Positions 4,598 to 33,552 of a stretch of 64,000 bases of DNA are shown in pieces (the stretch's first letter is position 1; each line of letters opens with the position of its first letter). Origin of the DNA: an uncultured Magnetococcales bacterium (GTDB lineage Bacteria > Pseudomonadota > Alphaproteobacteria > UBA2136); assembly GCA_963974105.1 (NCBI GenBank), contig CAXBBG010000001.1, positions 706,793 through 770,792 of the forward strand. Reading direction: 5' to 3'. The notes under the pieces were generated by a model. The model did not search any database and was not told where the DNA came from. It saw only the letters and a list, made by a program, of their open reading frames with translations. A program made the translations under genes and the position numbers.

Positions 4598-5563
4598 TTA
4601 TATTATAGCGCTGATATCATCAATTTGAATGCCAAGTTCAATATATAAGTCTGCTTTGCCGTATTGGTAATGTGCATAAGTGTGCTCTCCTATGGTTGTG
4701 TTTTCTTGGATGTTTGCCTTGCTGAGATTTTCAATATGTACGCTGTCACCTATATTACCGTTTACAAAAATTGAATCGGTATCACTTAATTTTACAACAT
4801 CTTTTAGGTCTAAATAAACTTCTTCATTGTTGTCATTATCCATGTCAATTTGTTCTATCCTTTTAAAGGATTTAGTGTTTATGTGAATGACTTCTTGGGG
4901 TTCTATGATGATGGTATCATTACCTCTTCCGCCTTGAATTAGTGTATCTTGTGCGTCAACAATTAGAGTATCATCACCATTTCCGCCTCTCAGCTGGTCT
5001 GCCCCGTCATTGCCACGTAATGTATCGTCACCTTTTCTACCGTATATCTTGTCGTCGCCAGCACCACCTTCTAAGTTATCATTAAATTTGTTTGAACCTT
5101 TAATGACTTGGTTGGTGACAGGAGCTGTTTCCTCTTCTTCTGGCTGAGGAGTAATTATTTCATCTATGGAAGGTATTGACGGCGTCAATGATTCAACCTC
5201 TTGGGTTGGGTTCATAAACCTATCTGCATTTTCCTCAATGTGTGGAAAAATACTTTCTGAAGGCTCGATAAGGTTATGGCTTTTATGGCTGTAATGGGTT
5301 TGCACAGAGGATAAGAGGTTATGAAGAGGCATAACTGACTCTTGTGTGTTGTAGATTGCTGAACCTATATGTGTTGTCAGGGTGTGTATAGGGTATGCTG
5401 GTCCAGCAGAGGGCTCTACTTGCCATAGGGTGTTTGAATTTTCCCACTGTGCAAACTCTTGTGACGTGTTTACGTTTTGTTGTAATTCTTCTGTGTTCTC
5501 GTCAACTTTTTCTAAAATTTCTAGTGTTTCAACTTTGTTAAGTTCTGCTTTTTGATTTGTCAT
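4598..5563 (-). CDS. RTX-type calcium-binding repeat protein, putative T1SS substrate
   Basis: Tandem GGxGxDxUx nonapeptides (GGAGDDKIYGRKGDDTLRGNDGADQLRGGNGDDTLIV…GGRGNDTIII). The N-terminus is acidic and Gln-rich. There is no N-terminal signal peptide. Confidence 0.65.
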   Translation of the reverse strand: MTNQKAELNKVETLEILEKVDENTEELQQNVNTSQEFAQWENSNTLWQVEPSAGPAYPIHTLTTHIGSAIYNTQESVMPLHNLLSSVQTHYSHKSHNLIEPSESIFPHIEENADRFMNPTQEVESLTPSIPSIDEIITPQPEEEETAPVTNQVIKGSNKFNDNLEGGAGDDKIYGRKGDDTLRGNDGADQLRGGNGDDTLIVDAQDTLIQGGRGNDTIIIEPQEVIHINTKSFKRIEQIDMDNDNNEEVYLDLKDVVKLSDTDSIFVNGNIGDSVHIENLSKANIQENTTIGEHTYAHYQYGKADLYIELGIQIDDISAII

Positions 5564-5751: not shown

Positions 5752-7455
5752 TTACCGTTCCTTATCTTCATACATGCCGTTATCAGCTATTTGTAGAAGG
5801 TCTTTTGCTGTTGTGGCGTCTGTAGGGAAGGTTGCTGTACCAATACTTACACCAATAGCTATATCTGTATCTACGATATTTGTTTTAAATGGCTTATTGA
5901 TGGCGGCCTTGATTTTATCTATGTAGAAGTTAGCTTTGTCTTTATCACATTTTATCAACACAACAAATTCGTCTCCGCCAATACGGGCAATTGTTGATGC
6001 TTTAGGAAGTGTAGCTGTTAAGCGGGTTGCCACTTCTTTTAATATTGCATCACCAGCTTCATGACCGTAAGTGTCATTTACAGGTTTAAATTTATTCAGA
6101 TCAAGGAAGAAGACTGTGAATTTAGCCTTGGATACTGTACCAGCTTTAAGGGCCGCCATGAAGGCTGTGCGGTTATCTAAGCCTGTTAATGCATCACTCA
6201 GGGCAACGTTCTGCCTAAACCTTCTTGAAACTTCTTGCGATATTTCTGAAACAAAAGCATCTCGACCTTTACCATCACGGATAACTTCTATTGCAGCTTC
6301 TGGAACATCTAAAAGTTCTGCAGCTGTTTTGACGCAGCCTTTGCAGTGTTCGATTGAGGCGATGACTGTTTCATAGTCGTCCATTCCGTGAGATACTTGG
6401 CGAATGGTTATATCCTCTTTTTGGATAGACATGGCACGTTTAATGTCATCCCAAAGTGAGCCTGTTCTTTCTTTCTTGACGGCGGTTCGTACGCGTAAAA
6501 AAACAGAAAGAGCAGATCCGAATGTAATAATAAAACATGCAATAAGGAGTTGATACCCACGTTCACCTTCAAACACACTTTCATTCTTAGAAAAAGCAGA
6601 TGTGAAGGATAAGAGCCATTCGGCAGCTAATGTTAATAAGGGTACAAATGCCATTAAAGCAATAATGTTATCCGACTTAATTTTATAACTCGCAGACCAA
6701 AAGAAATATCTATAAATAGATGATAGAAAAACGCCATACAAAAGACCTAACCAAATACTAGAAGGGTGCGCGTAGCGTGCAATGTCTGGGAAAAATGCTA
6801 AATACTCTGATTGCGGTAATACATATTGTTTGAATATTGAACCTATAATGGCAAATAGTAAAAACATCATACTTGTAATAAAGGAGACAAATCCAACAAC
6901 GCGCGCTTTATCACGCATATTACCACTTTCTTGAGCTTGTTCGGACTGTTTATGTGTTTCTGCAAAGATAACTTCTCCAGCCTGTACAATACCAGTTGCT
7001 AACGCTAAATAAAATATAACCCAAATAACGTCTCTGTCTTGAAGTGAGAAAAGGTAAGCTAGCCCAATACCTACAAAAACAAGCCCTATCAAGTCAGTTT
7101 TAGGTTGGGCGCGTTTAAAGAAGAATAAGGATGCAAGAAATGAAACAGGGATAGCAAATCTACCAAACAAGCTCATTTCTGTTGCGCTTACATAGCGCGT
7201 TAAGTAAACATCTAAAACAAATATGCCGATGGATGCAATGCCATAAAACCAAGTTGATGGGTTTTTTAATGTGTTTCCAACCAGTTTGCCTGGGCCAGCA
7301 AAAATTGATAATACAAGAGAGGCTGATACAATCGATATAGCTGCAAAAACAACAGCTTCTATATCAAAGTTCATAGAAGCAAAGCGAATGAGTATATTAA
7401 AGCAACTTGCTAGAATAACAAGTGTAAATGCTTGTAAAATTCCGGTTAAATACAT
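5752..7455 (-). CDS. membrane-anchored diguanylate cyclase (multi-TM N-terminus plus GGDEF domain), paralog 1
   Basis: The C-terminal GGDEF domain carries an intact RxGGDEF motif (ARIGGDEFVVLI) and DLNKFKPVNDTYGH. The N-terminal ~330 aa are hydrophobic. Confidence 0.85.
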   Translation of the reverse strand: MYLTGILQAFTLVILASCFNILIRFASMNFDIEAVVFAAISIVSASLVLSIFAGPGKLVGNTLKNPSTWFYGIASIGIFVLDVYLTRYVSATEMSLFGRFAIPVSFLASLFFFKRAQPKTDLIGLVFVGIGLAYLFSLQDRDVIWVIFYLALATGIVQAGEVIFAETHKQSEQAQESGNMRDKARVVGFVSFITSMMFLLFAIIGSIFKQYVLPQSEYLAFFPDIARYAHPSSIWLGLLYGVFLSSIYRYFFWSASYKIKSDNIIALMAFVPLLTLAAEWLLSFTSAFSKNESVFEGERGYQLLIACFIITFGSALSVFLRVRTAVKKERTGSLWDDIKRAMSIQKEDITIRQVSHGMDDYETVIASIEHCKGCVKTAAELLDVPEAAIEVIRDGKGRDAFVSEISQEVSRRFRQNVALSDALTGLDNRTAFMAALKAGTVSKAKFTVFFLDLNKFKPVNDTYGHEAGDAILKEVATRLTATLPKASTIARIGGDEFVVLIKCDKDKANFYIDKIKAAINKPFKTNIVDTDIAIGVSIGTATFPTDATTAKDLLQIADNGMYEDKER

Positions 7456-7664
7456 TAGCTAACCTTCCCTGTAAAAATGGCGAGCATGATAAAGACAGCT
7501 AAAACACCAACCATAAGTGCAATAGAAGAAGCCCAAGCGTAAATATCTGCCTGTGTGGCAGAGGAGATGATAAGCATGTCTTCACGGCGTTCATTTACAG
7601 TACGACGTTTAGGCTTATTTTTCCTACGTGCCGAGGAGGGGGTTGTTTGTTTTGTTTTTGTCAT
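7455..7664 (-). CDS. small basic N-terminus plus single-TM peptide, partner of DGC paralog 1
   Basis: The start was moved to the ATG that matches the paralog (MTKTKQTTPSSARRKNKPKRR…). The stop overlaps the DGC start, so the two genes are coupled. The paralog sits at 17338..17529. Confidence 0.5.
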   Translation of the reverse strand: MTKTKQTTPSSARRKNKPKRRTVNERREDMLIISSATQADIYAWASSIALMVGVLAVFIMLAIFTGKVS

Positions 7665-7760
7665 TGTTTGCCCTGATATTTGATTTACCATTTATAGTGT
7701 AAGTGTTTAGGTATAAAAATACAATCACAGCTTAACCTCGTTTACATATAAAAATATTGT

Positions 7761-8660
7761 TTATCGGTTTAAAACATCCAATAATAAAATTATCCCGATG
7801 GATATAATGGTCAGTGCGCCAAATAACTCTAGGAGGATATACCAAAAAGACGTGTTACTTTCTTTTGTGAGGCGGTCGATAACTTTTTTCTTGCCATAAA
7901 TGCAAATGGTACCAATGGAAATCATTGTAATGGCCATGCCAAGGGCGATGAATGAAACCATAAAAAGACCAAGCCAAAGCACGTCATATGCCATGGCATA
8001 AACAAGAATCAGTAAGGAACCTGTGCAAGGTACGGCGCCCACAGCCCATGATAAAATTGTTTCCTTTTTACTTTTGTGATGGTGCTGGCTGTTACAATGG
8101 CTGCAACTGTTCGCATGTTTGTCATTTTTTATCCATTGACGCATAGCTTGATAAAACATAAATAAACCGATAAAGCTAATGATGCTATAGCTCAATACTT
8201 TTGCCCAAAATACTTGTTGCTCTGGGTTTGTTAAAACATTTTTAAGGGTTAAATTTGCAATTAACACAATTAAAATGGCGCCGCCTACATGGCTTAAAGC
8301 TACTTGAACACCTACCCAAATACCACGTGAAATATGTGCGCCATTGGTTAAAAAATAACTGGCAACAACCATTTTTCCGTGCCCTGGGCCAAGAGTGTGG
8401 ATTATGCCATAAAGAAAAGCAGCAGCAGCGCTGGCAAAAACAACAGCCCATGAAGGGTTATCCTTTAACACCTTCATGCGTTTTGGTATTTCTCGGTTAA
8501 TAACAATGCTCCACTTGGTAATTTGTTTTTGCACAGAAGTGAAAATGGTATGAGACGAATTTGCTTGAATTTGTGTTTCGCTTGCATGCATAGAAGGCAA
8601 CGCATAGCTTTGCGAAATAGCTATAGCAAGTACAAAAATTAAGGTGGCGATCAATTTCAT
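7761..8660 (-). CDS. RcnA/COG2215-family nickel/cobalt transporter-like membrane protein
   Basis: The motifs HTLGPGHGK and GAVPCTGS parallel E. coli RcnA's HGLEPGHSK and GGLIPCPAA. A His/Cys-rich loop is present (CSHCNSQHHHKSK). Confidence 0.7.
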   Translation of the reverse strand: MKLIATLIFVLAIAISQSYALPSMHASETQIQANSSHTIFTSVQKQITKWSIVINREIPKRMKVLKDNPSWAVVFASAAAAFLYGIIHTLGPGHGKMVVASYFLTNGAHISRGIWVGVQVALSHVGGAILIVLIANLTLKNVLTNPEQQVFWAKVLSYSIISFIGLFMFYQAMRQWIKNDKHANSCSHCNSQHHHKSKKETILSWAVGAVPCTGSLLILVYAMAYDVLWLGLFMVSFIALGMAITMISIGTICIYGKKKVIDRLTKESNTSFWYILLELFGALTIISIGIILLLDVLNR

Positions 8661-9254
8661 TTAAGCTCCTGCGCAGTTGATTTTATATGTTTCAGGGTTA
8701 ACTAAACCACCATAGATCGAAATATTTTTATTTTCTTCTAATTCATATTTGCAAATGGCATGTTGAGGTAAGGTTAAGTCGTAACTTTGTTCAAAAGAAA
8801 TATAAAATTCTGGATCAAAAAAGCCAATATCATGTGTTCCGTTTATAGGTGCAGGTTGGTCGAGTATGATTGAAAATTGATAGTGTAATGTTTCGTCTTC
8901 AGCCATCCAAATTGTGGGGTTTTGGAATTTAAACGTGTGTGTTTTTCCGTTAAAACGCAAATATATAAATGGAAATAAAGATTCTGGATTTTCTTTGAAA
9001 ACAGTTTGAATTGCATATTCGGTTTCAGACTTTTCTAATTTCATGTTTTTGTTGAGGTCGGCGTCTTGTAAAAAAGCGACGCTGTATAATTCGTCAAATT
9101 TCCACAACACCTTTAAGCCTGTTATTTGGTTAGAATCTGTTAAAATTTCGACGTCGGTGTAAGCCCAAATATGTGGGTGTGCCTGCGCTACCTGCGCCGA
9201 AAATGTAAAAAGAAATAGAAATAGAAATTGTGTCGTTATTGACATGACGCGCAT
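8661..9254 (-). CDS. DUF1007-family periplasmic protein, the usual partner of COG2215 transporters
   Basis: A signal peptide is followed by an HPHIW motif at the mature N-terminus. It sits immediately upstream of and abuts the RcnA-like gene. Confidence 0.65.
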   Translation of the reverse strand: MRVMSITTQFLFLFLFTFSAQVAQAHPHIWAYTDVEILTDSNQITGLKVLWKFDELYSVAFLQDADLNKNMKLEKSETEYAIQTVFKENPESLFPFIYLRFNGKTHTFKFQNPTIWMAEDETLHYQFSIILDQPAPINGTHDIGFFDPEFYISFEQSYDLTLPQHAICKYELEENKNISIYGGLVNPETYKINCAGA

Positions 9255-9679
9255 AGCCCTAAAACTTCAATATTTGTTTCTAATGGTTTGAAATTTGATT
9301 TTTTAGCCGAGTTTTCAATGATGGAAGCTTGCTCCGAAAAATCAATTTCTTTAATTTCATGACAATTTGTACAAATTAAAAACTCAGAAATATGAGCTTC
9401 TTTGTGGGCATGGGTACAGGCAATATAAGCATTAATGCTGGAAATATGATGCGCTAAACCAATTTCTGTTAAAAATTCTAACGCACGGTAAGTAATGGGC
9501 GGTTGTTTATTTTCAATAAATTGCATAAGTTCTTTTGCTGTTAAGGCTTTGTGCGACGAAATAAGTGCCTCAAAAACTTGGCGACGGCTTTCTGTAAAGC
9601 GGTGGCTGTGCTTTTCACATAACATTTCTGCTGTTTGAACAGCTTCTATTTCACATTGGTGATGTTGTTGGCAACCCAT
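9236..9679 (-). CDS. Fur-family metalloregulator, Zur-like
   Basis: Fur fold with HxH and CxxC…CxxC elements (CTNCHEIKEIDF). I placed the start at MGCQQHH, where GGAGG sits 5 nt upstream, rather than at the track's longer N-terminus. The gene overlaps the DUF1007 gene start, so they form an operon. Confidence 0.8.
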   Translation of the reverse strand: MGCQQHHQCEIEAVQTAEMLCEKHSHRFTESRRQVFEALISSHKALTAKELMQFIENKQPPITYRALEFLTEIGLAHHISSINAYIACTHAHKEAHISEFLICTNCHEIKEIDFSEQASIIENSAKKSNFKPLETNIEVLGLCASCQ

Positions 9680-9712
9680 AAAAACTCCTCCATATTTCAT
9701 TTGACATCGTAG

Positions 9713-9750
9713 TGTTAATCTGTAACAAATGCAAATGTTAATTTTTAACA
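9713..9750. promoter_or_regulatory. two tandem Zur-box-like palindromes in the divergent promoter region
   Basis: TGTTAATCTGTAACA at 9713-9727 and a perfect 6-3-6 palindrome TGTTAATTTTTAACA at 9736-9750. Both lie between the fur-family gene and the divergent His-rich gene. Confidence 0.4.
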
Positions 9751-9793
9751 GAAACACCTCAATTTTTTACCCTTATTATTTAAGGAGCTCTTT

Positions 9794-10438
9794 ATGAAAA
9801 TAACTCAAATAACACCCGATGGCGTTATTTTATCCACTTTAGCGACTGAAGCATTTCAGAAAATGCGTCAACTGGAAAATAAAAACGACCCCAATCGAAG
9901 AAGTGACTTGTATGGCCCTTATGAAGCTGTATGGCTTGAACGTACTGGAAAATTGCCACCTGAATATTTTGAAAAGGATGACCCCAATCCGTGGAAACTG
10001 CTTGCTGATGAAGCACGCCGTAACATTTTATGGCAAGCGCTTTCGGGTTGCTTGGACATTAATACGCAGTGGGCGCTTGTGTATATTCAGTTGGTTATGG
10101 ATAAAGCTTTGAATGATGATGATTTTGCAAAAGAACTTGCACAGGTGAATAAGCAGTTTTTGCATAGCTTAGATCACATGCATGCAGGGCACAACACACA
10201 GAATCATATGAAGCATCACATTGGTCACATTGACTGCCCCGGCTGCTCTGCAACGGCCGCATTATTGATGATTGATCCTCAAATTCGTGCCCGTTTTGAA
10301 AAAGAGCTTAAAAATTTAAGTAAACTTTCCCCAAGCGATCGTATGGATATTTTAAAGCAAGAAGGTTTAGATAAATATTTAAACAGCACCATACAAAATG
10401 AAAAAAACGGCAAAATTATTTTGCCTGATAGCGTGTAA
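9794..10438 (+). CDS. His-rich putative metal-binding protein
   Basis: Sits divergent from the Zur-like operon. Contains the cluster HMHAGHNTQNHMKHHIGHIDCPGC. No signal peptide. Confidence 0.55.
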   Translation: MKITQITPDGVILSTLATEAFQKMRQLENKNDPNRRSDLYGPYEAVWLERTGKLPPEYFEKDDPNPWKLLADEARRNILWQALSGCLDINTQWALVYIQLVMDKALNDDDFAKELAQVNKQFLHSLDHMHAGHNTQNHMKHHIGHIDCPGCSATAALLMIDPQIRARFEKELKNLSKLSPSDRMDILKQEGLDKYLNSTIQNEKNGKIILPDSV

Positions 10439-10450
10439 TATATTTAAGAA

Positions 10451-10476
10451 GCCCTCAAAAATGAGGGCTTTTTTTA
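10451..10476 (+). terminator. Rho-independent terminator
   Basis: GCCCTCA-AAAA-TGAGGGC hairpin followed by a T7 run. Confidence 0.6.
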
Positions 10477-10492
10477 TGACCTATGGACGAAT

Positions 10493-10507
10493 TGTTAAAT
10501 TTTAACA
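10493..10507. promoter_or_regulatory. Zur-box-like perfect palindrome upstream of the 10571 cluster
   Basis: TGTTAAATTTTAACA, 6-3-6, about 64 nt upstream of the ATG at 10571. It has the same architecture as the boxes at 9713-9750. Confidence 0.4.
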
Positions 10508-10570
10508 TTTACAAATGAATGCGACTTGTTTATATTTTTATTAAATTTAAAATGAAAAGGGTTATCTATT

Positions 10571-11536
10571 ATGCGTGTGGCATTTGTTGCAAAAGGTGGA
10601 AGTGGTAAAACAACGGTGTCATCTCTTTTTGTGCGCTATGCTTTAAGTCAAGGCAAGCAAGTTACAGCAATTGACGGTGATATGAACCAACACTTAAGCA
10701 CAGCATTAGGTTTAAATTTAGATGCTTTGAAAATAAAAGATTTAGGTAACAATGAAGCGCGTTTGCGTGAACTTTTAGGTTCTAATCATGCTTATATTGA
10801 AGATATTAAACAAATGATAGAGTCTACACCTGCAGGTGAAGGGTCTCACTTGTTTACAAGTAATAGCTCAAGCCCTGTTTGGGACGAATTTTCTTACAAG
10901 CAAGAAAACTTACGCTTTTTAACCGCAGGTGCCTTTAAAAATGAAAACATGGCTGAAACTTGTTACCACACATACACAGGCGCTGTAACGATGTTTCTAA
11001 ACCACTTTATTGATCGAAAAGATGAATTGGTTGTGGTGGATATGACGGCAGGTTCTGACCCCTATACATCTGGTATGTTTAGCCGTTTTGATGCTGTTGT
11101 TTTAGTGCTTGAGCCAACATTAAAGTCTATGGCTGTTTATGATCAATGTATGCAATATGGTAAAGACTACGACATTCCGCTTTACGTTGTGGCGAATAAA
11201 ATTGAAGACAATTCTGACCTTGAATTTATAAAAGAAAAAGTAGGGGGTGACCTCATTGCATATATGGTTTCTTCTACCTTTATCCGTCAGCAAGAGCGAG
11301 GTGTGTGGCAAGATATTGATTGCTTAGAAATAGAAAATTTAAAGGCATTACACATAGTGCTTGAAAAAGTGATGGCAACACCAAAAGATTGGGATAAGTA
11401 TCAAAAATTTGGTGAAAAATTCCACCAAATTAAAGCAGAAGGTTGGGGCAATGCAATATATGGTGGAGATCTTATGAAACAAGTTGACCCAAATTTCTCG
11501 TATGCAAAAATAGCTAAAAGTATGGAGGCTTTATAA
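10571..11536 (+). CDS. MinD/ParA-superfamily P-loop ATPase, CooC-like candidate metallochaperone or maturation ATPase
   Basis: Deviant Walker A (KGGSGKTT) at the N-terminus. A DMTAGSD motif resembles the CooC D-x-AG-E motif. Confidence 0.6.
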   Translation: MRVAFVAKGGSGKTTVSSLFVRYALSQGKQVTAIDGDMNQHLSTALGLNLDALKIKDLGNNEARLRELLGSNHAYIEDIKQMIESTPAGEGSHLFTSNSSSPVWDEFSYKQENLRFLTAGAFKNENMAETCYHTYTGAVTMFLNHFIDRKDELVVVDMTAGSDPYTSGMFSRFDAVVLVLEPTLKSMAVYDQCMQYGKDYDIPLYVVANKIEDNSDLEFIKEKVGGDLIAYMVSSTFIRQQERGVWQDIDCLEIENLKALHIVLEKVMATPKDWDKYQKFGEKFHQIKAEGWGNAIYGGDLMKQVDPNFSYAKIAKSMEAL

Positions 11537-13002
11537 TGCTAGCGCACTCGGCAGAAAAGTCTCATCACAATGTGCCTACTTTAACGGCCAAGCAAAGTTT
11601 ACTTGTGCAGTCTTTGTTGCAGCATAAAAATGAACTTTTGCAAGCTATCCAAGTTTTACCAGAAGGGCATGTGCATGTGGTGCTACCACAGCAAATGAAA
11701 CAAAATATCTCTTGGATGCGCCAAGTATTTGGTGCATATGATATTGAGCCGCGTATATTTGTTTCTCACAAACCCAGTAAATCAAACGTGCTCATTAAAC
11801 AAGCCCGTGCTGAAAATACAGGATTAGATGTATCATCTAAAAATGAACTTATTTCTGCGCTTAAAAATGGTTTTTCTGGTCAAAAAATTTGCTGCACAGG
11901 TAGTAAAAACGAAGAATACCTTTCACTTTCCATTCAACAGGGCTGTTTGCATAGTTTAGATTCAATTGAAGAATTGGAACGATATATTGACTTGTGCAAA
12001 CAAATTGCGCCACATGAGCAACACAAAATTCTTTTGCGCATTAACAGTGCTGATGCGCCTTATGGTGGAAAAATGTCTCGCTTTGGTATTCCTGTAAATA
12101 ATTTAGAAACCTGCTTTAATTTACTGAAAGAGAACTCTAATGTGTACTTAGAGGGTTTTCATATGCATTCAGGTGAAAGCTCGGGTGAAATGCGTGCTCA
12201 GGAAGTAACTTTAATACTGCATTATATGCAAAGGGCGCATGCTCTTGGTTTTACACCTCATACTGTGAATATAGGCGGCGGGTTTCCACGTACTTTTTAT
12301 GAATCAAAGAGCGAGACAGAAGCTTTTACAGACTCTTTGATTCAATCATTGTCTACGAAAAAAGATATAACTTGGCGTGGGTATAGTTATGGGTTGTCAC
12401 TGACAGACAAAGGTGCTGTAGTCGGCAGAGCGGGGTTGGAAAGTCTGTTTAAATGTGATGACTTTGAATGCACCTTAAGGCAAATGCTTGATGCTGATTC
12501 TATCAATGCGTCAGTGCATAAAGTTATGGGGGAGTGTGGTTTTGATTTTATGATAGAGCCCGGGGTAAATGCTTATGACGCTTGTGGTGTAACTCTTTTT
12601 AAAGTGGTTGAAGTTCAAGATAAAAATAATCAAACATTAACGGTTTTAGACGGCAATAAGTATAACGTACAATTTGACCAAATTGAATATATGGCCGACC
12701 CAGTTTTGATTTCGGAAGATGAAATTGACAAGAAAAATGAAAGTTTTTCAACCTATCTTGTGGGGAATTTGTGTGCAGAATTTGATGTTATGGTGAAGCG
12801 TAAAGTTGTTTTAAATGGCAAGCCTAAGGCAGGTGATTATTTATGTTTTATGAATACAGCAGGTTATACAGCAGACTTTAACGAAACGTCTGTACATCAA
12901 CACCCAATAGGTCAAAAAATTGTGGCATTAAAAAAAGAAAACGGCTGGAAGTTTATGAGCGAAGACCGTTTTAACCCTTATGATCTTATAGAAAGGTTGT
13001 GA
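11536..13002 (+). CDS. type III PLP-dependent decarboxylase (Orn/DAP/Arg decarboxylase family)
   Basis: TIM-barrel N-domain with a conserved Lys region. The C-terminal beta-domain carries GNLCAEFDVM…MNTAGYTADFN, comparable to the GPxCESxD…AGAY motifs of that family. Confidence 0.65.
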   Translation: MLAHSAEKSHHNVPTLTAKQSLLVQSLLQHKNELLQAIQVLPEGHVHVVLPQQMKQNISWMRQVFGAYDIEPRIFVSHKPSKSNVLIKQARAENTGLDVSSKNELISALKNGFSGQKICCTGSKNEEYLSLSIQQGCLHSLDSIEELERYIDLCKQIAPHEQHKILLRINSADAPYGGKMSRFGIPVNNLETCFNLLKENSNVYLEGFHMHSGESSGEMRAQEVTLILHYMQRAHALGFTPHTVNIGGGFPRTFYESKSETEAFTDSLIQSLSTKKDITWRGYSYGLSLTDKGAVVGRAGLESLFKCDDFECTLRQMLDADSINASVHKVMGECGFDFMIEPGVNAYDACGVTLFKVVEVQDKNNQTLTVLDGNKYNVQFDQIEYMADPVLISEDEIDKKNESFSTYLVGNLCAEFDVMVKRKVVLNGKPKAGDYLCFMNTAGYTADFNETSVHQHPIGQKIVALKKENGWKFMSEDRFNPYDLIERL

Positions 13003-13006
13003 AAAA

Positions 13007-14323
13007 ATGATTTATAATTCTGTTATAGATATGATTGGTCAAACACCTATGTTAAAAATTCCAGCTGAGGTTCATGGATTAAAAAATATTGACGTGTACG
13101 CTAAGCTTGAATATATGAACCCTTATGGGTCGGTAAAAGACCGTATAGCTTACGGTTTGATGAAAGACCATATAGAAGAAATGAAACTAACAGGCAAAAA
13201 ACCTGTGATTGTTTCCAATGCAAACACTGCAAAAGCTGTGAGTTGTTTAAGCCATTATGTTGGTTTACAGCCTTACATTGTGAGCAATAAAATGCCTTAT
13301 AAAGAAGTACGGAATCAGCTTAAATTTCTAGGTGCTGAAATAGAAGAGTTACCAGCTTTAACGCAGTGCCCCAACCCTTTTGACCCAAATGATATGATTC
13401 AATATGCAGAGCGCATGGTTTCACAAAACCCAGAAAAATTTCATTTAATAGATCAGTTTGGTGACCTAAATAACCCTCAAATTCATTTTGAAACGACAGG
13501 TAAAGAAATTTACGAGGACTTAGGCGATGTCGATTATTTTTTTGCTGTTCTTGGTACCTCGGGCACAACGTTAGGTGTCGGGAATTATCTACGTGAACAG
13601 AACCCAAATACCAAAGTATTTGGTGTCATTACTGAAACAGGTCATAGTGCACCAGGGGGAAGATCGAAGAGTGAAATGTGGGAAGTGGGTATTTTTAATC
13701 CAGCCCATTATGACGAAATTATAGCGGGTACCAACCAGCAAGCAACGTTGGGTATGCGCGAACTTAACATGAAATGTGGGGTTATGTGTGGGCCAACAGG
13801 TGGGCTTGGTTATCATCGTATGCTTGAAAAATTGCGTGAAATTGACCCATCACTTGAAGGTGAAAAACGTTCTAAGGCTGTGTTTATCGCCTGTGACCGT
13901 ATGGAGCCTTATATGGATTACGTACAAAAAGCTTGCCCCGAATTTTTTGAAGAAAAACCAATCGAAAAATTACGTGTACAAACGCTGTCCATGCTTAAAG
14001 TGCAATATGCACCAAGTATAGATGCTCAAGGTTTGATGGATATGCTAAAAAGCGATAAACAACCACTCATTATTGATACACGCGGTGCTTTTGCTTACTC
14101 GATTAGTCATATTGAAGGTTCCATTAACATTCAGGACACATTTTTAGAGCAAATGCTAGACAATGGTAAGCCATTCCCTGAAGATCAGGTGATTGTTTTT
14201 GCCTGTATGAGGGGAGATGTTTCTACACGTTTTGCTGCTTTTGCTAAAGAGCTTGGTTACGAAGCTTACTCTTTAAGTTGTGGCGTGGGTGCTTTTGTTC
14301 ATCTGTGTCAGACAAAAACATAG
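13007..14323 (+). CDS. fold-type II PLP enzyme (CysK/SbnA-like) fused to a C-terminal rhodanese domain
   Basis: A PLP-lysine motif SVKDRIA lies near the N-terminus. The C-terminal ~100 aa form a rhodanese fold with active-site Cys (IVFACMRGDVS). Confidence 0.7.
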   Translation: MIYNSVIDMIGQTPMLKIPAEVHGLKNIDVYAKLEYMNPYGSVKDRIAYGLMKDHIEEMKLTGKKPVIVSNANTAKAVSCLSHYVGLQPYIVSNKMPYKEVRNQLKFLGAEIEELPALTQCPNPFDPNDMIQYAERMVSQNPEKFHLIDQFGDLNNPQIHFETTGKEIYEDLGDVDYFFAVLGTSGTTLGVGNYLREQNPNTKVFGVITETGHSAPGGRSKSEMWEVGIFNPAHYDEIIAGTNQQATLGMRELNMKCGVMCGPTGGLGYHRMLEKLREIDPSLEGEKRSKAVFIACDRMEPYMDYVQKACPEFFEEKPIEKLRVQTLSMLKVQYAPSIDAQGLMDMLKSDKQPLIIDTRGAFAYSISHIEGSINIQDTFLEQMLDNGKPFPEDQVIVFACMRGDVSTRFAAFAKELGYEAYSLSCGVGAFVHLCQTKT

Positions 14324-14433
14324 TGACTTAAATTATTTTTTTCTTGTGGGATATAGTGCATTTTGATACTAGTTATTTACTAAATTTCTTTATTTAGAAA
14401 CCATCTTTATCTTTTTCTTTCGAGGAACTTCCT

Positions 14434-15459
14434 ATGTGCGAAAAACACACAACGGGTGTTGGCCCGTATGCAACTCAAATGGGGTTTGACCAAAGTGCGA
14501 TTGATGCTTTGAAAAAACCATTCTTTAACACAGCGGGCGCATGCGCCTATTTTGATCTCGGAACAATTCCTAAAGACATTGCCCGTTGGGTTATACAAAT
14601 TGAAGTCTCTAAATTTGCATGCTATGTGCAAAATGCTCAAGGTGAAAAATCACCTATTCAAATTGAAGAAAATGGTACATCTAAAACTATTCAGCTTGCT
14701 ATGCCTGAAAACGGTGTAGATGCATGGATACATGATACATTACGCGACTACTTACATCTGCAATATGCGCCGTTAGGTGTTATTGCACCTTATTTTAACT
14801 TCGGTTTTCGTTTGTTTAATGAAGACGATAAACGTCATGGTTCTGTGCAGGTATTTGCTTTTGCGCATGCTGAATTGGTGACGCAATACGGTACTAACAG
14901 TCAAGGTTATCCAAATGTCCCTTGGACAGAAAAAGGCGGGTGCTGTGTGAATAAAGGTGTGGAAAAGTTAATGCCGTTTATGCAAAGCTTATCGGCTGAT
15001 AAACTGCGCCAATTGCCACAAAAACTATCGGGATCTATCTTGTATCGTTTCATGCCTATGGACGAAAGTATTGTAAATATATCAGCGTCTGCAAAGGCTG
15101 AAAATTGCATTACGCATTTGATTAAAGACGATGGTTCAAAAGTTGAAATAACAATGAAAAATGATGACGATAAAGACATATCTATTTCTCTTATGCATCC
15201 CATGTCTTGTTATGTTCATCCGCATATTCGTCAAATGTTACAGGTGTCTGATAAACCTTCATCTGCGCTTTTTAGAGAAACGTACGTGTGGGGTTTTGTA
15301 AATCATGACACACTTAAAGGTATGGTTTTTATGTGCTTAGCGCCTGAAAGAAATATACAGCCGGCAGCAGGTGATATGGAAGAATATATCCCTGAACCGC
15401 TTTTAATAGCAACGAATGGGCAGTTAGCAAAAAAACGCTGCCCTGCTTGTAAAAGCTAA
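14434..15459 (+). CDS. Cys-rich hypothetical protein
   Basis: 341 aa with no motif I recognise. It contains GGCCVNKG and a C-terminal CPACKS. It is the last gene of the cluster. Confidence 0.5.
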   Translation: MCEKHTTGVGPYATQMGFDQSAIDALKKPFFNTAGACAYFDLGTIPKDIARWVIQIEVSKFACYVQNAQGEKSPIQIEENGTSKTIQLAMPENGVDAWIHDTLRDYLHLQYAPLGVIAPYFNFGFRLFNEDDKRHGSVQVFAFAHAELVTQYGTNSQGYPNVPWTEKGGCCVNKGVEKLMPFMQSLSADKLRQLPQKLSGSILYRFMPMDESIVNISASAKAENCITHLIKDDGSKVEITMKNDDDKDISISLMHPMSCYVHPHIRQMLQVSDKPSSALFRETYVWGFVNHDTLKGMVFMCLAPERNIQPAAGDMEEYIPEPLLIATNGQLAKKRCPACKS

Positions 15460-15470
15460 TAACGAAAAAA

Positions 15471-15495
15471 AACCTCCGTAAGGAGGTTTTTTTTG
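15471..15495 (+). terminator. Rho-independent terminator
   Basis: CCTCC-GTAA-GGAGG hairpin followed by a T8 run. Confidence 0.6.
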
Positions 15496-15612
15496 GATAA
15501 AAATGTGGGTGAATGACTGTACCACAAGCTTAGAGGAACGGCAGGTATTCAAGAGCGGTAAACGGTAGTAACTTTGCTGTATTGAATGCGGCCATGAAAT
15601 TATGCTAAGAAC

Positions 15613-17325
15613 TCATGAACTGTCCTTGTCTTCATACATATTCCCATCTGCGATTTTTAAAAGGTTTTTAGCTGTGGTGGCATCTGTTGGGTAGGTTGCT
15701 GTGCCAATGCTTACACCAATAGATATATCTGTGTCTACTGCACTTATTTTAAATGGTTTATCTATGGCTGTATTGATTTTATCTATGTATAGGTTAGCCT
15801 TTTCTTCGTCACACTTTATCAGCACAACAAATTCATCGCCGCCAATACGGGCAATAGTTGCTGTGTTAGGCAGCGTAGCTGTTAAGCGGTTTGCCACTTC
15901 TTTTAATATTTCATCACCTGCTTCATGACCGTAAGTATCATTCACAGGTTTGAACTTATCTAAATCAAGGAGAAATGTTGTGAATTTTGTTGCTTGTTTA
16001 CTTAATGATTTTATTTCTGCCATAAGTGAAGGCCTGTTATTTAAACCTGTTAAAGCATCACAGCTTGAAATATTACGTCTAAAACTTCTTGCCATTTCCT
16101 GTGAAGCATCCGCTGTTAGCGCTAAAGACCCTTTTGCTTCATAAAGTACAGTAATGGCATTTTTTGATATGCCAAGTAATTCTGATGCTTTTTCTTTGTC
16201 ATCTTCAGTATATTCTAACGTAGTTTGGATAATTTCATAATCATCCATAGCATTAGATACTTGCTGAATATTTGATTCTCCTCGCTTTACGGTGAGTGAT
16301 TTTTTAATAGTTTTTTTGAATGATTTAAAGTTTGTGATTTTTACGTTTTTTGTCAGCCTTAAATAAGCAGAATACCAAGCACCAGCTGCCATAATGAAAG
16401 TTAAGGCGAATAAGTAGATGCCTCTACTGCCATCGAATGTCATTTGGTTTGATTTGAATAATGGGTGGAAGGAAAGAAGCCACTCACAAGCAAGTGTTGT
16501 CAGGGGAATAATAGCAAGTACAGTTAGGACGTTTTCGGTCTTTATTTTATAGGTAGATGACCATTGGAAATAACGTGTAAACGGCGACAGGCATAGCCCA
16601 AAAATAAAGCCAGCCCAAATTGTTGGTGCATGTGTAAATTTTGATATTTCGGGTATGAATGAAAGTTGCTGCTTTAGTTCGGGTGTTAGCATATTCATTT
16701 TTATAAAACTTAAGCCAAGTGCAAGAATAAAGAATATCATGCTTGTAATAAAAGTTACAAAGCCAACGACACGTGCTCTGTCGCGTAAGTTCCCGGTTTG
16801 TTGGGCATTGACGGATTGCTTGTGTGTTTCTGAAAGCATAAAAACAACAGCCTGTAAAATGGCTGACAAAACACCTAAAATTAACACAGGCTTTAATGTT
16901 TCAATAGGCTGAAGGAATAAAACTCCTGTAAGTCCAACACACAAAGCAGCCACATTGAATAGGTCTGTTTTAACAGGTTTTCTGCTTAATAAAAGAAAGG
17001 CTAAAATAATAGAAACAGGTACAGCTATTCGGCTTAATACACTTAATTCTGTACCAGAAATATATTTAACGAGATAAATATCGACGGTGAATGTGCCCAC
17101 TAAAATGAAACCATAAAACCAAGTGGCAGGTGTTTTTAGAGTATCACTGACAAAGCGACCTGGGCCTGCAAAAATAGACAGTGTGAGCGCCGTCGCAATA
17201 AGATATGTGCAAGCAAATACGATAGGTTCAATATCAAACAATAAAGAGTTTACGCGAATGTAAACATTAAATAATGTTGTGATAACAACAATACCAAAGG
17301 CTTGAAGGACGCCAGTTAAGTACAT
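15613..17325 (-). CDS. membrane-anchored diguanylate cyclase (GGDEF), paralog 2
   Basis: Same architecture as 5752..7455, with colinear similarity along the whole length (ARIGGDEFVVLIKCD, DLDKFKPVNDTYGHEAGD). Confidence 0.85.
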   Translation of the reverse strand: MYLTGVLQAFGIVVITTLFNVYIRVNSLLFDIEPIVFACTYLIATALTLSIFAGPGRFVSDTLKTPATWFYGFILVGTFTVDIYLVKYISGTELSVLSRIAVPVSIILAFLLLSRKPVKTDLFNVAALCVGLTGVLFLQPIETLKPVLILGVLSAILQAVVFMLSETHKQSVNAQQTGNLRDRARVVGFVTFITSMIFFILALGLSFIKMNMLTPELKQQLSFIPEISKFTHAPTIWAGFIFGLCLSPFTRYFQWSSTYKIKTENVLTVLAIIPLTTLACEWLLSFHPLFKSNQMTFDGSRGIYLFALTFIMAAGAWYSAYLRLTKNVKITNFKSFKKTIKKSLTVKRGESNIQQVSNAMDDYEIIQTTLEYTEDDKEKASELLGISKNAITVLYEAKGSLALTADASQEMARSFRRNISSCDALTGLNNRPSLMAEIKSLSKQATKFTTFLLDLDKFKPVNDTYGHEAGDEILKEVANRLTATLPNTATIARIGGDEFVVLIKCDEEKANLYIDKINTAIDKPFKISAVDTDISIGVSIGTATYPTDATTAKNLLKIADGNMYEDKDSS

Positions 17326-17337
17326 GAATTTATCCCT

Positions 17338-17529
17338 TTATATATTCGATAGAATGATAAGTGTTGTTAAAACTGCGACCATAAAGGCAATAGATATAGC
17401 CCAAATGTAAATGTCACTTTGGCTTGCAGAGGAAATAATAAGCATATCCTCACGGCGTTCGTTTATAGGACGTCGGGTAGGTTTGTTTTTCCTACGCGCA
17501 GAGGTAGCTGTTTGTTTTGTTTTTGTCAT
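17338..17529 (-). CDS. small basic single-TM peptide, partner of DGC paralog 2
   Basis: Begins MTKTKQTATSARRKNKPTRRPINERREDMLIISS…, paralogous to 7455..7664. The 5' leader is also conserved between the two. Confidence 0.5.
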   Translation of the reverse strand: MTKTKQTATSARRKNKPTRRPINERREDMLIISSASQSDIYIWAISIAFMVAVLTTLIILSNI

Positions 17530-17675
17530 GATTTGCCCTGATTTTTATTCATCTATATAGTGTAGGTGTTTACAGAGCAGAATTCAATTGATGTTATAGA
17601 TTATTGTTTGATATTTATAGCTTATTACAGAGGCATGTCGCCTAAATTGCACTTTTATAGAAAAGGTTGTGTTTT

Positions 17676-17712
17676 ACGCATAAAAAAACAGCCTGAAGGC
17701 TGTTTTTAAAAA
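17676..17712. terminator. bidirectional hairpin terminator, repeated element copy 1
   Basis: AAAAAAACAGCC-TGAA-GGCTGTTTTT. It terminates the oprM-macB-macA operon. A near-identical copy lies at 41955-41992. Confidence 0.5.
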
Positions 17713-17734: not shown

Positions 17735-19099
17735 CTAAATTTTCCAGCTTCCCCCCATGGCTTTAAAAAGGTCTACAGATGAGGTTAATTTAGAAAGGCG
17801 GGCTTCGGCATAGTTATCTTCTGCAGATAATAGAGATATTTGTGTGTCTAGCAGCGTTGAGAAATCGATTGAACCCGCATCATAAAGTTCTTTAGATAAA
17901 GTGTAAGCACGCAATGATTCTTCCATGGCTGTTTGTAAAAACTCTTCTCGTTCTTGTGCAGATTTGACAGCCGCTAACGCATTCTCTACATCTTGAAAGG
18001 CTGAGTAAACGATTCCTCTATAGTTTTCAATCAATTCTAATTCTTTTGCTGTTGCTTGATCTAATTTACCGTTAAGCTGCCCGCCATTAAAAATAGGTGC
18101 GGTAATATTAGCTGCCAATGTTAAAACATTAGTGCTTAGTGTAGAAAAACTTGCAGCCGAAAATATGTCATCTACTCCAAGGGATATGGAGGGATATAAT
18201 GCTGACCGAGCAACACCAACATTGGCGTTGGCCGCTTTTAAATTAGCTTCGGCAGCTTTAATGTCGGGCCTACGTTTAAGTAAGTCTGACGGTTGAACAA
18301 CAGGAATGTTAGGTATGTTAATGGCAGTTAATTCTTTTTTATGCACATTAAAACCCTGTGGAGCTTTGCCTAACAAAATAGCTAAAGCATTTTTAGTGTT
18401 AATCCTTAATTCGACAATTTTTGAACGGGCAGCTTGGGCGTTTGCTACCAATGTTTTTTGTTGTGCTAATTCTAAATAAGAATCGACACCTTCATCTACA
18501 CGTACCTGTATAATATTTAAAACGTCGAGGCGGCTTAATAAATTTTTATCAGCAATTTCAATCCTTTCATTTAAATTTAACAGTGTGAAATAGTTGTAAG
18601 CAACATCGCCCATAATAACCAATTTAAGCGCTTCTTGTGCGTAGACGCTCGAAAGTAAATTGGCTTGGGCAGCGTTTTTCACCTCTTTATTTCCACCAAA
18701 TAAATCCAATTCGTAAGAAGCGCTTAAACCCGCACTTAAACGTTCATTTGTAAAGCTATCACCGTTATTTGAATTTGTTGAGGCTTGAGATATACCTGCA
18801 TTTATATCTAATGTTGGCCATAAATTACCACCTGCTAGTTTTACAGCCGCGCGTGACTGTGCAACAACTTGCATACCAGCCGTTATATCGGTGTTTTTTA
18901 ACAATGCTTGCTCTATTAATTCATTCAGCGTTGTGTCACCAAAGGTTTCCCACCATGATTGATCAGCGTATGCACCATGCTCTACATTAGAACCTTCCCA
19001 CGTTTTTGGTGTTTCAAAAGATGGTTCTATATAATTTGTTGATAAACTACACGCACTAAGCGTTAAAAAAGTTAAGGTGTTTATTAATATTTTTTCCAT
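17735..19099 (-). CDS. outer-membrane efflux lipoprotein (NodT/OprM/TolC family)
   Basis: Lipoprotein signal (LTLSACS). Two-repeat TolC-like architecture. It is the last gene of the macAB operon. Confidence 0.85.
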   Translation of the reverse strand: MEKILINTLTFLTLSACSLSTNYIEPSFETPKTWEGSNVEHGAYADQSWWETFGDTTLNELIEQALLKNTDITAGMQVVAQSRAAVKLAGGNLWPTLDINAGISQASTNSNNGDSFTNERLSAGLSASYELDLFGGNKEVKNAAQANLLSSVYAQEALKLVIMGDVAYNYFTLLNLNERIEIADKNLLSRLDVLNIIQVRVDEGVDSYLELAQQKTLVANAQAARSKIVELRINTKNALAILLGKAPQGFNVHKKELTAINIPNIPVVQPSDLLKRRPDIKAAEANLKAANANVGVARSALYPSISLGVDDIFSAASFSTLSTNVLTLAANITAPIFNGGQLNGKLDQATAKELELIENYRGIVYSAFQDVENALAAVKSAQEREEFLQTAMEESLRAYTLSKELYDAGSIDFSTLLDTQISLLSAEDNYAEARLSKLTSSVDLFKAMGGSWKI

Positions 19100-19109
19100 A
19101 AAAATTTCC

Positions 19110-21068: not shown

Positions 21069-22255
21069 TAGATACGCCCCGCTGCACGATTACTAGGGCC
21101 TTGACGTGGTTTTTCTGCTGTGTTCTTTTGATTAGTCCTGGAGGGCGCTGTTATAATTTTTTCACCCACTGTTAACCCGCTTGAAATTGCAGCATGTGTA
21201 CGGTCGGTAGTGCTTACAATAACCACACGTGATGTTGGAACACCTTCTGCTTCAACTTTTATATAGTAGGCTTTTCCTTCAGCTGTGTCTTTTTCGAACG
21301 CACGGTGTTTTAACACGCTAATAGGAATAACAGGCACATTTTTTGCACTTGATAATACAAAAAACATTTGTGTTGTCATGCCACTCATTAAAACACCATC
21401 GGCGTTATCAACATCAACCATAACATTGTATAAAACAACATCATTTACAATCATAGGTGTGGGCTCAATTTGACGTATAACGCCATGCCACTTACGCTCT
21501 CCTGAGCCTAAAGTGCTAAAATAAACGTTGATATCTCTTTTTAATTTCATAATGTCGGCTTCGGCAACTTCTGCTACCACGGTCATGGTATTTAAACTAG
21601 CAACTTGCACAATAGTTGGGGTTGTTTGCGATGCGTTGATGGTTTGCCCTTCTTGCACTTCCTGAGAAACCACTGTGCCGTCCATAGAGCTATAAATCTT
21701 TGTAAATTTTAAATTTGTTTTAGCAAGGTCTAGGGTTGACTGTGCTTCTTCAATTTGCGCTTTAACACCTAAAAGCTGTGCTTTTGCAATATCTAAAGCG
21801 TTTTCAGAGTCTTGGAAAGTTTCCTTGCTTACAGCTTGAGATTTATACAAACGTACATTGCGATCATATTTTTGTTGAGCTTGCTTTAGATAGGCACTTT
21901 TTTCTGATTTTTGAGCTTGTAAATTCTTAAACTGAGCCTCTTTCGTTAAAACACTGGCTTCATAAATATCAGGTTCTATTTCTGCAATCAAATCACCTTT
22001 TTTTATCTGGTCACCGATTTTAACATGCATTTTTAAAATTTTACCTGAAACTTGCGCCCCTATATCTACATAATTTTTAGGTTCTAAAGTGCCCTGTGAG
22101 GTAACAACAGACTCCAGATCTCCTATTTCAACAGTGATAATATTATTGGATTGATTTGCAATAGATGTATTATACCCAGTATAAATTTGAGATGCTAATA
22201 CCAGCAATAAAATTGCAAGAGATGTTGTTATGACATTTTTTTTATTCAGCTTCAT
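21068..22255 (-). CDS. macA: MacA/HlyD-family periplasmic membrane fusion protein
   Basis: N-terminal TM helix, coiled-coil hairpin region and lipoyl/beta-barrel domains. Its stop overlaps the macB start. Confidence 0.85.
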   Translation of the reverse strand: MKLNKKNVITTSLAILLLVLASQIYTGYNTSIANQSNNIITVEIGDLESVVTSQGTLEPKNYVDIGAQVSGKILKMHVKIGDQIKKGDLIAEIEPDIYEASVLTKEAQFKNLQAQKSEKSAYLKQAQQKYDRNVRLYKSQAVSKETFQDSENALDIAKAQLLGVKAQIEEAQSTLDLAKTNLKFTKIYSSMDGTVVSQEVQEGQTINASQTTPTIVQVASLNTMTVVAEVAEADIMKLKRDINVYFSTLGSGERKWHGVIRQIEPTPMIVNDVVLYNVMVDVDNADGVLMSGMTTQMFFVLSSAKNVPVIPISVLKHRAFEKDTAEGKAYYIKVEAEGVPTSRVVIVSTTDRTHAAISSGLTVGEKIITAPSRTNQKNTAEKPRQGPSNRAAGRI

Positions 22256-26992: not shown

Positions 26993-27279
26993 TATAATCG
27001 CTTTACTCCCTTAAAGAGCCCTCAGGGATTTTGGATGCCATAAAGCAGTGTAATATTGCATTTGACCTAAAGTTTTTTATGAGATTTTACCCATAAACCG
27101 CCAACAACCCTATCTATTATTAGGTATATTTCACTGAAATGTGCTCAAAATACATCATAAATATATATACTTATACAGGCAGATCAGAATTTATTTGCTA
27201 TAATATATAACAACTCCTTAAATACCTATATTATAAATATATACTGAATATACTGATTAATTTATGGGGGTTTTTACAC

Positions 27280-28980: not shown

Positions 28981-29046
28981 CAATTTACAGAAACATAAGA
29001 GTCAGAAACAAAAAAGATAAATTATTAAAGGTAATTATAAGTATAT

Positions 29047-32619: not shown

Positions 32620-32801
32620 CTTTCAAAGTCAATTTCAACAAATATATACCCTGCCTCCTTATTCTGAGACCAAAAAAGAAATTAGTCTTTTGAGGCTGAA
32701 GATCAGAAGGGTGATTATTAATATAATTCCAAATGACTTTGGGTTGAAATTCACACCATAAAACCCCATAAAATTATAACACTAAAATTAAAGGCGCTAA
32801 G

Positions 32802-33517: not shown

Positions 33518-33527
33518 CGAACTAAAA

Positions 33528-33552
33528 GCACCTCTTCGGAGGTGTTTTTTTT
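33528..33552 (+). terminator. Rho-independent terminator
   Basis: GCACCTC-TTCG-GAGGTGT hairpin followed by a T8 run. Confidence 0.55.

Follow-up and report, generated by a model that had tools for sequence, protein, structure and literature searches.

The two gene cassettes described here lie in a 64,000-nucleotide stretch of DNA from an uncultured Magnetococcales bacterium (contig CAXBBG010000001.1, positions 706,793 to 770,792), which we refer to as the window. Each consists of a gene for a basic peptide of 63-69 amino acids (aa), followed by a tightly coupled gene for a membrane-bound GGDEF cyclase of ~570 aa. We found that the two cassettes, A and B, are old paralogues from two clades of a narrow family of uncultured marine Pseudomonadota, and that cassette A is a chimera, with the sensor centre of the A clade and the promoter/leader region, peptide tail and GGDEF core of the B clade. 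The conserved leader of the cassettes is thus one of two recombination tracts rather than a constrained RNA element. Taken as a whole, we consider it likely that these are peptide-cyclase operons of old paralogous descent, one of them mosaic, whose leader marks a recombination tract and whose peptide is a subunit or regulator of the cyclase.

Organization of the two cassettes

An initial annotation of the window had described two paralogous two-gene cassettes alike in order, strand and architecture, and the list of open reading frames (ORFs) bears this out, with cassette A at 5752..7664 and cassette B at 15613..17529, both on the minus strand. Small ORF A (7455..7664, 69 aa) is preceded by a Shine-Dalgarno (SD) sequence, AGGG, at 7674-7671, and its stop codon overlaps the ATG of cyclase A (5752..7455, 567 aa) in the form TAATG. 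Small ORF B (17338..17529, 63 aa) has its AGGG at 17539-17536 and is followed by a 12-nt gap, with a further SD sequence (AGGGA) within it, before the ATG of cyclase B (15613..17325, 570 aa). Both cyclases comprise a transmembrane (TM) domain of the drug/metabolite transporter (DMT)/EamA fold, a linker and a GGDEF domain, and the stretch of cyclase B held in common with A is 15613-15981. The cassettes stand 9,865 nt apart from start to start with ~7.9 kb between them, in agreement with the direct repeats ~8 kb apart first reported. In the DNA alignment, A and B are homologous from ~65-85 nt before the ATG of the small ORF as far as the stop codon of the cyclase, so each repeat is ~2.0 kb long. 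Mobile-element boundaries were considered for the cassettes and rejected, as no inverted or direct repeats flank them and the homology just ends.

Each cassette appears to have its own weak sigma-70-type promoter, which the two genes may use. The candidate in cassette A (7696..7724, minus strand) consists of TTGTAT (7724-7719), a 17-nt spacer and TACACT (7701-7696), and that in cassette B (17559..17587, minus strand) of TTGAAT (17587-17582), a 17-nt spacer and TACACT (17564-17559). The pattern TTGAAT-N16/17-TACA(C/G)T is found upstream of B and also of the related loci L007 and L004, and partially in L010. From TACACT, ~20 nt lead to the SD sequence AGGG, which stands 6 nt from the ATG in A and 6-7 nt in B; if the promoter call is correct, the leader, or 5' untranslated region, would be ~30 nt long. 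A hairpin with a T-run at ~17682-17707, seen by eye and absent from the scan list, precedes the candidate promoter of cassette B and resembles a terminator for the OEP gene lying upstream. A riboswitch or other structured leader RNA was rejected, as the sole Rfam match in the whole window is a tRNA at 41997-42069, with none in the leader, and the leader is too short. The leader motif recurs a third time, with 3 mismatches, at 27219-27237; we judged this AT-rich sequence upstream of a TpsB gene to be a chance match and set it aside.

Small ORF A can also be read from an ATG at 7691, giving a product of 78 aa, as in the public annotation P0001. The alignment with 13 homologues and the SD sequence AGGG place the true start at 7664 (69 aa), and the annotated P0001 is probably nine residues too long. 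The ATG at 7691 falls within the -10 region of candidate promoter A.

Cassette A is a mosaic of two clades

The two copies have diverged very unevenly. In pairwise alignments the peptides are 73% identical and the cyclases 50% identical over 568 aa; the early estimate that the cyclases are about half identical over their full length is correct as an average, but domain by domain the values are 44%, 38% and 77%. In sliding and global alignments, DNA identity between A and B is 75-83% between about position -65 and codon ~45 of the small ORF, and it drops to ~45-60% across the centre. As had been noticed from the sequence, conservation is higher in the leader and at the start of the small gene than in the gene body, but these parts are not unique in this. 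Conservation peaks over the final ~370 nt of each cyclase gene (5752-6120 in A, 15613-15981 in B), in the GGDEF core, with 82-92% DNA identity. The centre is 44% identical at the aa level, and in the TM domain and linker the synonymous divergence (dS) is above 2 or undefined (proportion of synonymous differences, pS, 0.71-0.80); dS is 0.77 in peptide codons 1-30 and 0.70 in the GGDEF core.

Comparison with related loci resolves this pattern into a mosaic. Informative sites were those at which B equals L007, a sister contig that carries the orthologue of cassette B, and differs from L010; at each, A was scored as B-like or not. Cassette A is B-like at 127/147 sites in its ends and at 130/369 in its centre, the remaining 239/369 being A-clade-like. 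The two-breakpoint maximum chi-squared was 110, a value reached in 0/200 permutations, and divergence along the alignment is strongly non-uniform. The breakpoints fall at ~+145/158 and ~+1534/1548 from the small-ORF ATG, corresponding to ~7507-7520 and ~6117-6131 of the window. They separate a 5' B-type tract (7520..7749, minus strand) holding the candidate promoter, the leader and ~48 codons, where 39/48 informative sites are B-like; an A-clade centre (6131..7507, minus strand) with the peptide TM helix, the whole DMT domain, the linker and the first ~25 GGDEF residues; and a 3' B-type tract (5752..6117, minus strand) that spans the GGDEF core between residue ~446 and the stop codon, with 88/99 sites B-like. 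Fisher tests against the centre gave p = 6e-5 for the leader, p = 1e-6 for the 5' part of the ORF and p = 6e-23 for the 3' tract, and third codon positions agree. The switch is visible at both ends in sliding identities of A, B, L007, L010, L004, L012 and L019. In blastn searches, L007 matches B at 83% DNA identity over 1992 nt and A only at 7508-7724 (83.4%) and 5760-6120 (81%).

The encoded proteins carry the same signal. The tail of peptide A is closest to B and L007 (80% aa), and its TM helix is closest to L010 (67% aa). The DMT domain of A is most similar to those of L010, L012, L013 and P0013 (63-65% aa) and its linker to those of L004, P0023 and L010 (60-65% aa), while its GGDEF core is closest to B and L007 (77-80% aa) and 56% identical to that of L010. 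Over the N-terminal 417 residues, cyclase A is 62% identical to P0012, 58-59% to P0013 and P0014, and 42% to B. The orthologues of B in L007 are P0002 for the peptide (85-94% identical) and P0022 for the cyclase. Since the closest relatives differ from one protein segment to the next, modular recombination seems to be recurrent in the family. L019, the nearest A-clade relative, was used for the 5' two-thirds of the cassette only. After the cyclase linker, at L019:2162-2518, its sequence runs on into an MnmA-like gene that is unrelated, leaving the cyclase split, probably through an assembly chimera or a frameshift. Of the options first raised for the leader, a conserved promoter or leader sequence or else gene conversion, recombination is thus the one favoured; a probable promoter lies in the same stretch, and the structured leader RNA falls away.

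The exchange appears to be old. Within both tracts, A, B and L007 are roughly equidistant and star-like, which places the exchange at about the age of the split from the L007 genome, and the comparison of these three gave no evident sign of continuing homogenisation of A and B. A marginal A=B excess (21/11/9) occurs at A positions 1548-1700, the first ~150 nt of the GGDEF core. The mosaic might have arisen by either of two routes: a B-type copy may have converted both ends of A, or the centre of a duplicated B-type cassette may have been replaced. We mildly favour a duplicated B-type cassette with a swapped sensor centre, because the tracts are of similar age and L007 has a truncated second B-type leader and ORF start. 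This second copy (L007:17091-17180, plus strand) extends over the leader and ~10 initial codons of the small ORF; it begins 50 nt past the stop of a UmuC/IMS gene and gives way to unrelated sequence. It seems to be what is left of a second cassette, and it shows that the sister lineage, too, had a second B-type 5' end.

A family of membrane-anchored peptides

Peptide A has a basic cytoplasmic tail, RRKNKPKRR...ERREDMLIISSAxQxDIYxW, followed by a single predicted C-terminal TM helix (residues ~48-66); the basic N-terminal tail and lone C-terminal helix point to a tail-anchored topology with the N-terminus inside. The initial annotation could place the small peptide in no family, and the searches concur: neither peptide matches any model of Pfam (E<=0.01) or NCBIfam (E<=1), c-di-GMP receptor families such as PilZ included. 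Among 5.8 billion proteins, a single-sequence search recovered 11 clusters of the family and a profile search 41, all of them "hypothetical" or unnamed and drawn from marine metagenome-assembled genomes labelled Pseudomonadota, Alphaproteobacteria or Magnetococcales. The aa sequence is conserved down to 46% identity across the family. An alignment of 14 divergent peptides has 19 invariant residues, including R13, R14, R21, E25, R26, R27, D29 and M30 and, further along, D40, I41, Y42, W44, A45, S47, M51 and L55. In the tail, RRxDM..S.A...DIY.W is an invariant motif. In the orthologue pair of B and L007, the ratio of nonsynonymous to synonymous divergence (dN/dS) of the peptide is 0.06-0.09, which indicates purifying selection.

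At every locus inspected (L001-L016), an EamA-GGDEF gene immediately follows the peptide gene, in genomic contexts that are otherwise unrelated. Even in L017, a distant ~550-aa fusion, the fusion gene is preceded by a small ORF that encodes RRKEDM together with a C-terminal TM helix. The genes overlap at start and stop or are separated by <=12 nt in nearly all loci. The exception is L005, where the gap is ~272 nt; L005:6204-6477 and L006:6186-6187 are near-identical loci, and an insertion of ~270 nt between the peptide and cyclase genes of L005 breaks the usual tight coupling. The stand-alone DMT locus L018, the sole one inspected, has no such peptide, a single case that proves little. At L013:4001-5861 the called peptide is 46 aa long and starts with MKEKRKDM, in which K replaces the first invariant R, and the cyclase motif is GGDEY; this pair may be degenerate or its start mis-called.

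Strict synteny, translational coupling and strong purifying selection together suggest that the peptide is most likely a dedicated, obligate subunit or regulator of the cyclase. The same partnership had been proposed from the window itself, with a search of other genomes suggested as a check; the linkage to GGDEF genes was found at all loci inspected, distant relatives included.

Domain architecture of the cyclases

The GGDEF domain occupies residues 419-566 of cyclase A (5758-6201, minus strand) and residues 422-568 of cyclase B, as defined by Pfam. It matches PF00990 with 115 and 120 bits in A and B (cut-off 23.8; E 1e-33 to 1e-35) and TIGR00254 with 117 bits (cut-off 37.4). In Foldseek, the domain aligns with GGDEF crystal structures at target-normalised template-modelling scores (TMt) of 0.84-0.87. 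RIGGDEF is present in both cyclases, and the GGDEF motif is intact in 15/16 pairs checked, the exception being L013 (GGDEY), and D452, K457, N460, D461, H465 and G494-F497 are invariant columns in 16 aligned family members. By these motifs the domains appear catalytically intact and would be expected to synthesize cyclic di-GMP (c-di-GMP). The RxxD inhibitory site (I-site) five residues before GGDEF was present in 0/15 family members checked; A has KAST and B has NTAT at this position.

The DMT/EamA-fold domain of cyclase A spans residues 1-329 (6469-7455, minus strand) and has ten TM helices, as delimited by AlphaFold2, Foldseek and Pfam. At the sequence level, EamA (PF00892) matches weakly and N-terminally, covering the first repeat only, with 22.8 bits in A and 17.0 in B (below the cut-off of 28.2); in relatives it exceeds the cut-off, with 37.6 bits in P0024, 45.7 in P0045 and 49.1 in P0066 (two stretches). 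The TM domain has no sequence-level match in the PDB. AlphaFold2 models of cyclase A reached a predicted local distance difference test score (pLDDT) of 80-82. The TM domain was also modelled alone, because the full-length Foldseek search was swamped by GGDEF matches, and the model of residues 1-340 (pLDDT 82, predicted template-modelling score 0.78) has ten long helices. In the PDB, DMT transporters account for every one of its 36 best matches, led by YddG (5i20; E 2e-5, query-normalised score TMq 0.59, TMt 0.70). On these models the predicted input module of the cyclase is a ten-TM (5+5) DMT/EamA fold with a putative transport or sensing role. Its cytoplasmic TM6-TM7 loop, ETHKQS..GNxRDKARVVGF, is invariant in 16 aligned members of the fusion family.

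A profile search with the TM domain found 276 representatives among 1.84 billion proteins, and the best 150 of the 276 fall into two length classes. In Pfam searches of 10 sampled matches, those of ~550 aa were GGDEF fusions and those of ~320 aa stand-alone EamA proteins. L018:1935-4936 encodes three tandem stand-alone DMT-domain homologues of ~320 aa without GGDEF; the trio adjoins a Peptidase_A24 gene, an 87-aa ORF and a PolyA_pol gene, and these genes also occur a few kb downstream of the L009/L010 cassette. Between the TM and GGDEF domains of cyclase A lies a three-helix linker (residues 357-395, 6271-6387, minus strand; pLDDT ~81-88). The Fis-type family HTH_8 (PF02954) matches the linker of P0018 with 30.2 bits (residues 363-390; cut-off 22) and that of B with 15.8 bits, under the cut-off; A has no match. 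A three-helix unit resembling Fis-type HTH_8 is unusually placed inside a polytopic membrane cyclase.

Alternative explanations

Uneven divergence might also have arisen without recombination, if strong functional constraint, on an operator, a regulatory RNA or a site of translational control, had kept the leader and the beginning of the small ORF alike. Such constraint would suit the promoter hexamers and the block AAACAC(C/T)TACACTATA, which recur upstream of A, B and L007 and more weakly in L004, as well as the family-wide conservation of the peptide tail at the protein level. However, L010 and L019, which belong to the A clade, have leaders with only 35-52% identity to that of A, and synonymous and third-position sites in the first 48 codons turn B-type (9/9 versus 56/117). 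The dS of these first codons stands out from values that are saturated elsewhere, the GGDEF core, at the opposite end of the cassette, shows the same phylogenetic switch, and neither the Rfam search nor the short inferred leader offers such an element; we regard constraint as unlikely. A recent duplication of the whole cassette in this genome, with the sensor part diverging fast under positive selection and the ends kept, would explain why order, strand and boundaries are shared and why the ends are 80-90% identical. Yet the centre is saturated at synonymous sites, beyond what selection on the protein can produce, it is closer to L010, L012, L013 and P0013 than to B (63-65% versus 44% aa), and B has a full-length orthologue in L007 at ~83% DNA identity. 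The segment phylogeny already contradicts a recent duplication, and we give it hardly any credence.

Two further readings concern the peptide and the repeats themselves. The small ORF could be a leader ORF whose translation controls the cyclase through coupling or attenuation, with no partner protein made; the tight coupling in A (TAATG overlap) and B (12-nt gap) and the constant position upstream of the cyclase are what it would predict. It is nevertheless very unlikely, given the 19 invariant residues of 14 divergent peptides together with the TM helix, RRxDM and DIYxW, and a peptide dN/dS of ~0.06. The aa sequence itself is kept, not merely the presence of an ORF, at identities as low as 46% and in a homologue as remote as that of L017, and a regulatory upstream ORF has no need of a conserved membrane anchor. 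The initial annotation had further suggested that the repeats could allow excision or amplification of the segment between them, that is, RecA-dependent loss or gain of ~8 kb of metal-homeostasis and biosynthesis genes. Direct orientation and tracts of ~230 and ~370 nt at 80-90% identity are in its favour, but the longest exact matches between A and B are 21, 20 and 17 nt, the centre is ~55% identical, and a 21-nt match is at or below the usual length of the minimal processing segment of RecA. The interval contains no mobility genes or tRNA and is uniform in GC content. In L007, the B orthologue lies in an unrelated context of integrase, HipA, UmuDC-like and toxin genes, without the locus of the Fur-family (Zur-like) regulator. 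With such poor recombination substrates and an arrangement that is absent from the one sister contig examined, the excision idea is unsupported, and we consider it most improbable.

Several points also weigh against the reading that we prefer, a chimeric cassette A whose peptide serves the cyclase. L010 is the only close A-clade relative with usable DNA over the whole cassette, and part of the 5' similarity is due to the family-wide conservation of the tail, which is 72% identical at the aa level between A and L010. Between B and L007, dS is 1.41 in the GGDEF core versus 0.5-0.9 in the remaining gene, which hints at further, unmodelled exchanges. The star-like tracts favour no particular direction or number of recombination events. 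The promoters are candidates only, since they score 8/12, below the threshold of 9/12, and were not called by the scan. Contact between peptide and cyclase is presumed, and ~16 pairs are too few for co-variation.

A possible mode of action

On the reading that we prefer, each cassette is a self-contained two-gene operon with its own candidate promoter, short leader and SD sequence. The TM helix of the peptide might pack against its cognate DMT domain, and the basic RRxDM tail might contact the cytoplasmic face of the enzyme, meeting either the GGDEF domain or the loop between TM6 and TM7, which is invariant. The ligand or transport state of the DMT domain could then be relayed through the helical linker to dimerisation of the GGDEF domains. 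The recombination has left two cyclases with common expression signals, peptide tail and output domain, and with differing membrane sensor modules.

The cyclases have no I-site and the peptide carries an RxxD, which raises the idea that this motif (within RRxDM) acts as a c-di-GMP-binding inhibitory site in trans, or in some other way makes catalysis respond to c-di-GMP or to the DMT domain's state. R-R-x-D-M is near-invariant in the peptides, with K-R-K-D-M in P0200 (L013). We find this role doubtful. It would fit the recombination pattern, in which the TM helix of the peptide stays with the sensor and the tail with the catalytic core, and if true it would make the peptide a new kind of dedicated regulatory subunit for diguanylate cyclases that lack an I-site.

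Genes between and around the cassettes

The interval between the cassettes (7761-15459) encodes a NicO-like permease, a DUF1007 protein and a Fur-family regulator on the minus strand. On the plus strand, it encodes a His-rich 214-aa protein without a family, a CobQ/MinD-like ATPase, a pyridoxal phosphate (PLP) enzyme resembling Orn/DAP decarboxylases, a PALP-rhodanese fusion and a 341-aa protein without a family. Judging from these assignments, the genes may form a metal-regulated small-molecule pathway, possibly of a metallophore-like kind. The end of an efflux operon of the MacA/MacB/OEP type (17735-22255, minus strand) lies a short way upstream of cassette B, while cassette A has an RTX-repeat protein (4598-5563) as its neighbour.

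Further along, 27280-32619 (plus strand) encodes a TpsB/TpsA two-partner secretion pair, the 1190-aa TpsA having a laminin-G-like domain. Window positions 32786-36205 share colicin-D-like, S24/UmuD-like and IMS/UmuC-like genes, in another order, with L007 2627-4192 and 14290-17040. A sequence of ~30 nt in this region (33518-33553) is repeated between small ORFs at L007 2627-2656 and 4158-4192, and it could be a cassette-boundary repeat.

Relationship to known systems and significance

The cyclases of the two cassettes resemble other membrane GGDEF cyclases, such as YfiN/TpbB/DgcN, AdrA/DgcC and those with MASE or 5TMR inputs, in having a C-terminal cytoplasmic GGDEF domain and a polytopic N-terminal input. 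DgcN/YfiN is the best domain-level match in NCBIfam, with 148 bits over the GGDEF part only and short of the equivalog cut-off of 325 bits, and the GGDEF structure of YfiN aligns at a TMt of ~0.8. Unlike PAS-, HAMP- or MASE-type sensors, the predicted input is a full ten-TM DMT/EamA fold, and the cyclases have no periplasmic domain and no RxxD I-site. The fold is that of DMT/EamA transporters such as YddG (5i20), LicB and SLC35, and stand-alone homologues of ~320 aa exist; in contrast to those transporters, the domain is fused here to a signalling output, in a "transceptor"-like arrangement.

The peptides may be compared with small membrane-protein regulators of sensor proteins, such as MgrB and SafA with PhoQ; in the cassettes, a short single-pass membrane peptide is encoded beside a membrane signalling enzyme and probably acts on it. 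YfiN has a periplasmic repressor, YfiR, in the place of which the cassettes have a dedicated small peptide, and SiaD, the partner of SiaC, is among the structural matches through its GGDEF domain only. These analogies, with MgrB/SafA-type peptides and with SiaC-SiaD and YfiR-YfiN as pairs of a diguanylate cyclase and its protein activator or inhibitor, draw on general knowledge of the systems. Unlike MgrB, SafA, SiaC and YfiR, with which it has no sequence relationship, the peptide has its gene ahead of that of its presumed partner in one operon and is translationally coupled to it, an arrangement suggestive of subunit-like stoichiometry. It also differs from them in its long basic cytoplasmic tail and in having almost no extracytoplasmic part.

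Gene conversion between paralogues is known from tuf genes, rRNA operons and antigen-variation cassettes, and cassette A shows the same incongruence between segments, lowered dS within the tracts and breakpoints in conserved sequence. Unlike those cases, the tracts of A are old (15-20% diverged) and show no ongoing concerted evolution. The units exchanged coincide with functional modules, the promoter with the peptide tail and the catalytic core, and the event resembles a sensor swap more than homogenisation. In the literature searched, we found nothing relevant on gene conversion in GGDEF genes, and the open-access papers searched contained no DMT-fold input combined with a conserved peptide of 60-70 aa, a peptide that is also absent from Pfam and NCBIfam.

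We conclude that the module represents a variant of membrane diguanylate cyclases that is undescribed, though narrow. Recombination between paralogues is ordinary and the family, of uncultured marine Pseudomonadota, is a narrow one, which makes the importance of the finding moderate. Cyclases that make c-di-GMP are defined by their input modules, and the combination of a DMT-fold input with a micro-protein may offer a small, clean system for studying how signalling is controlled. Cassettes A and B form a natural domain-swap pair within one genome, which would be well suited to mapping specificity.

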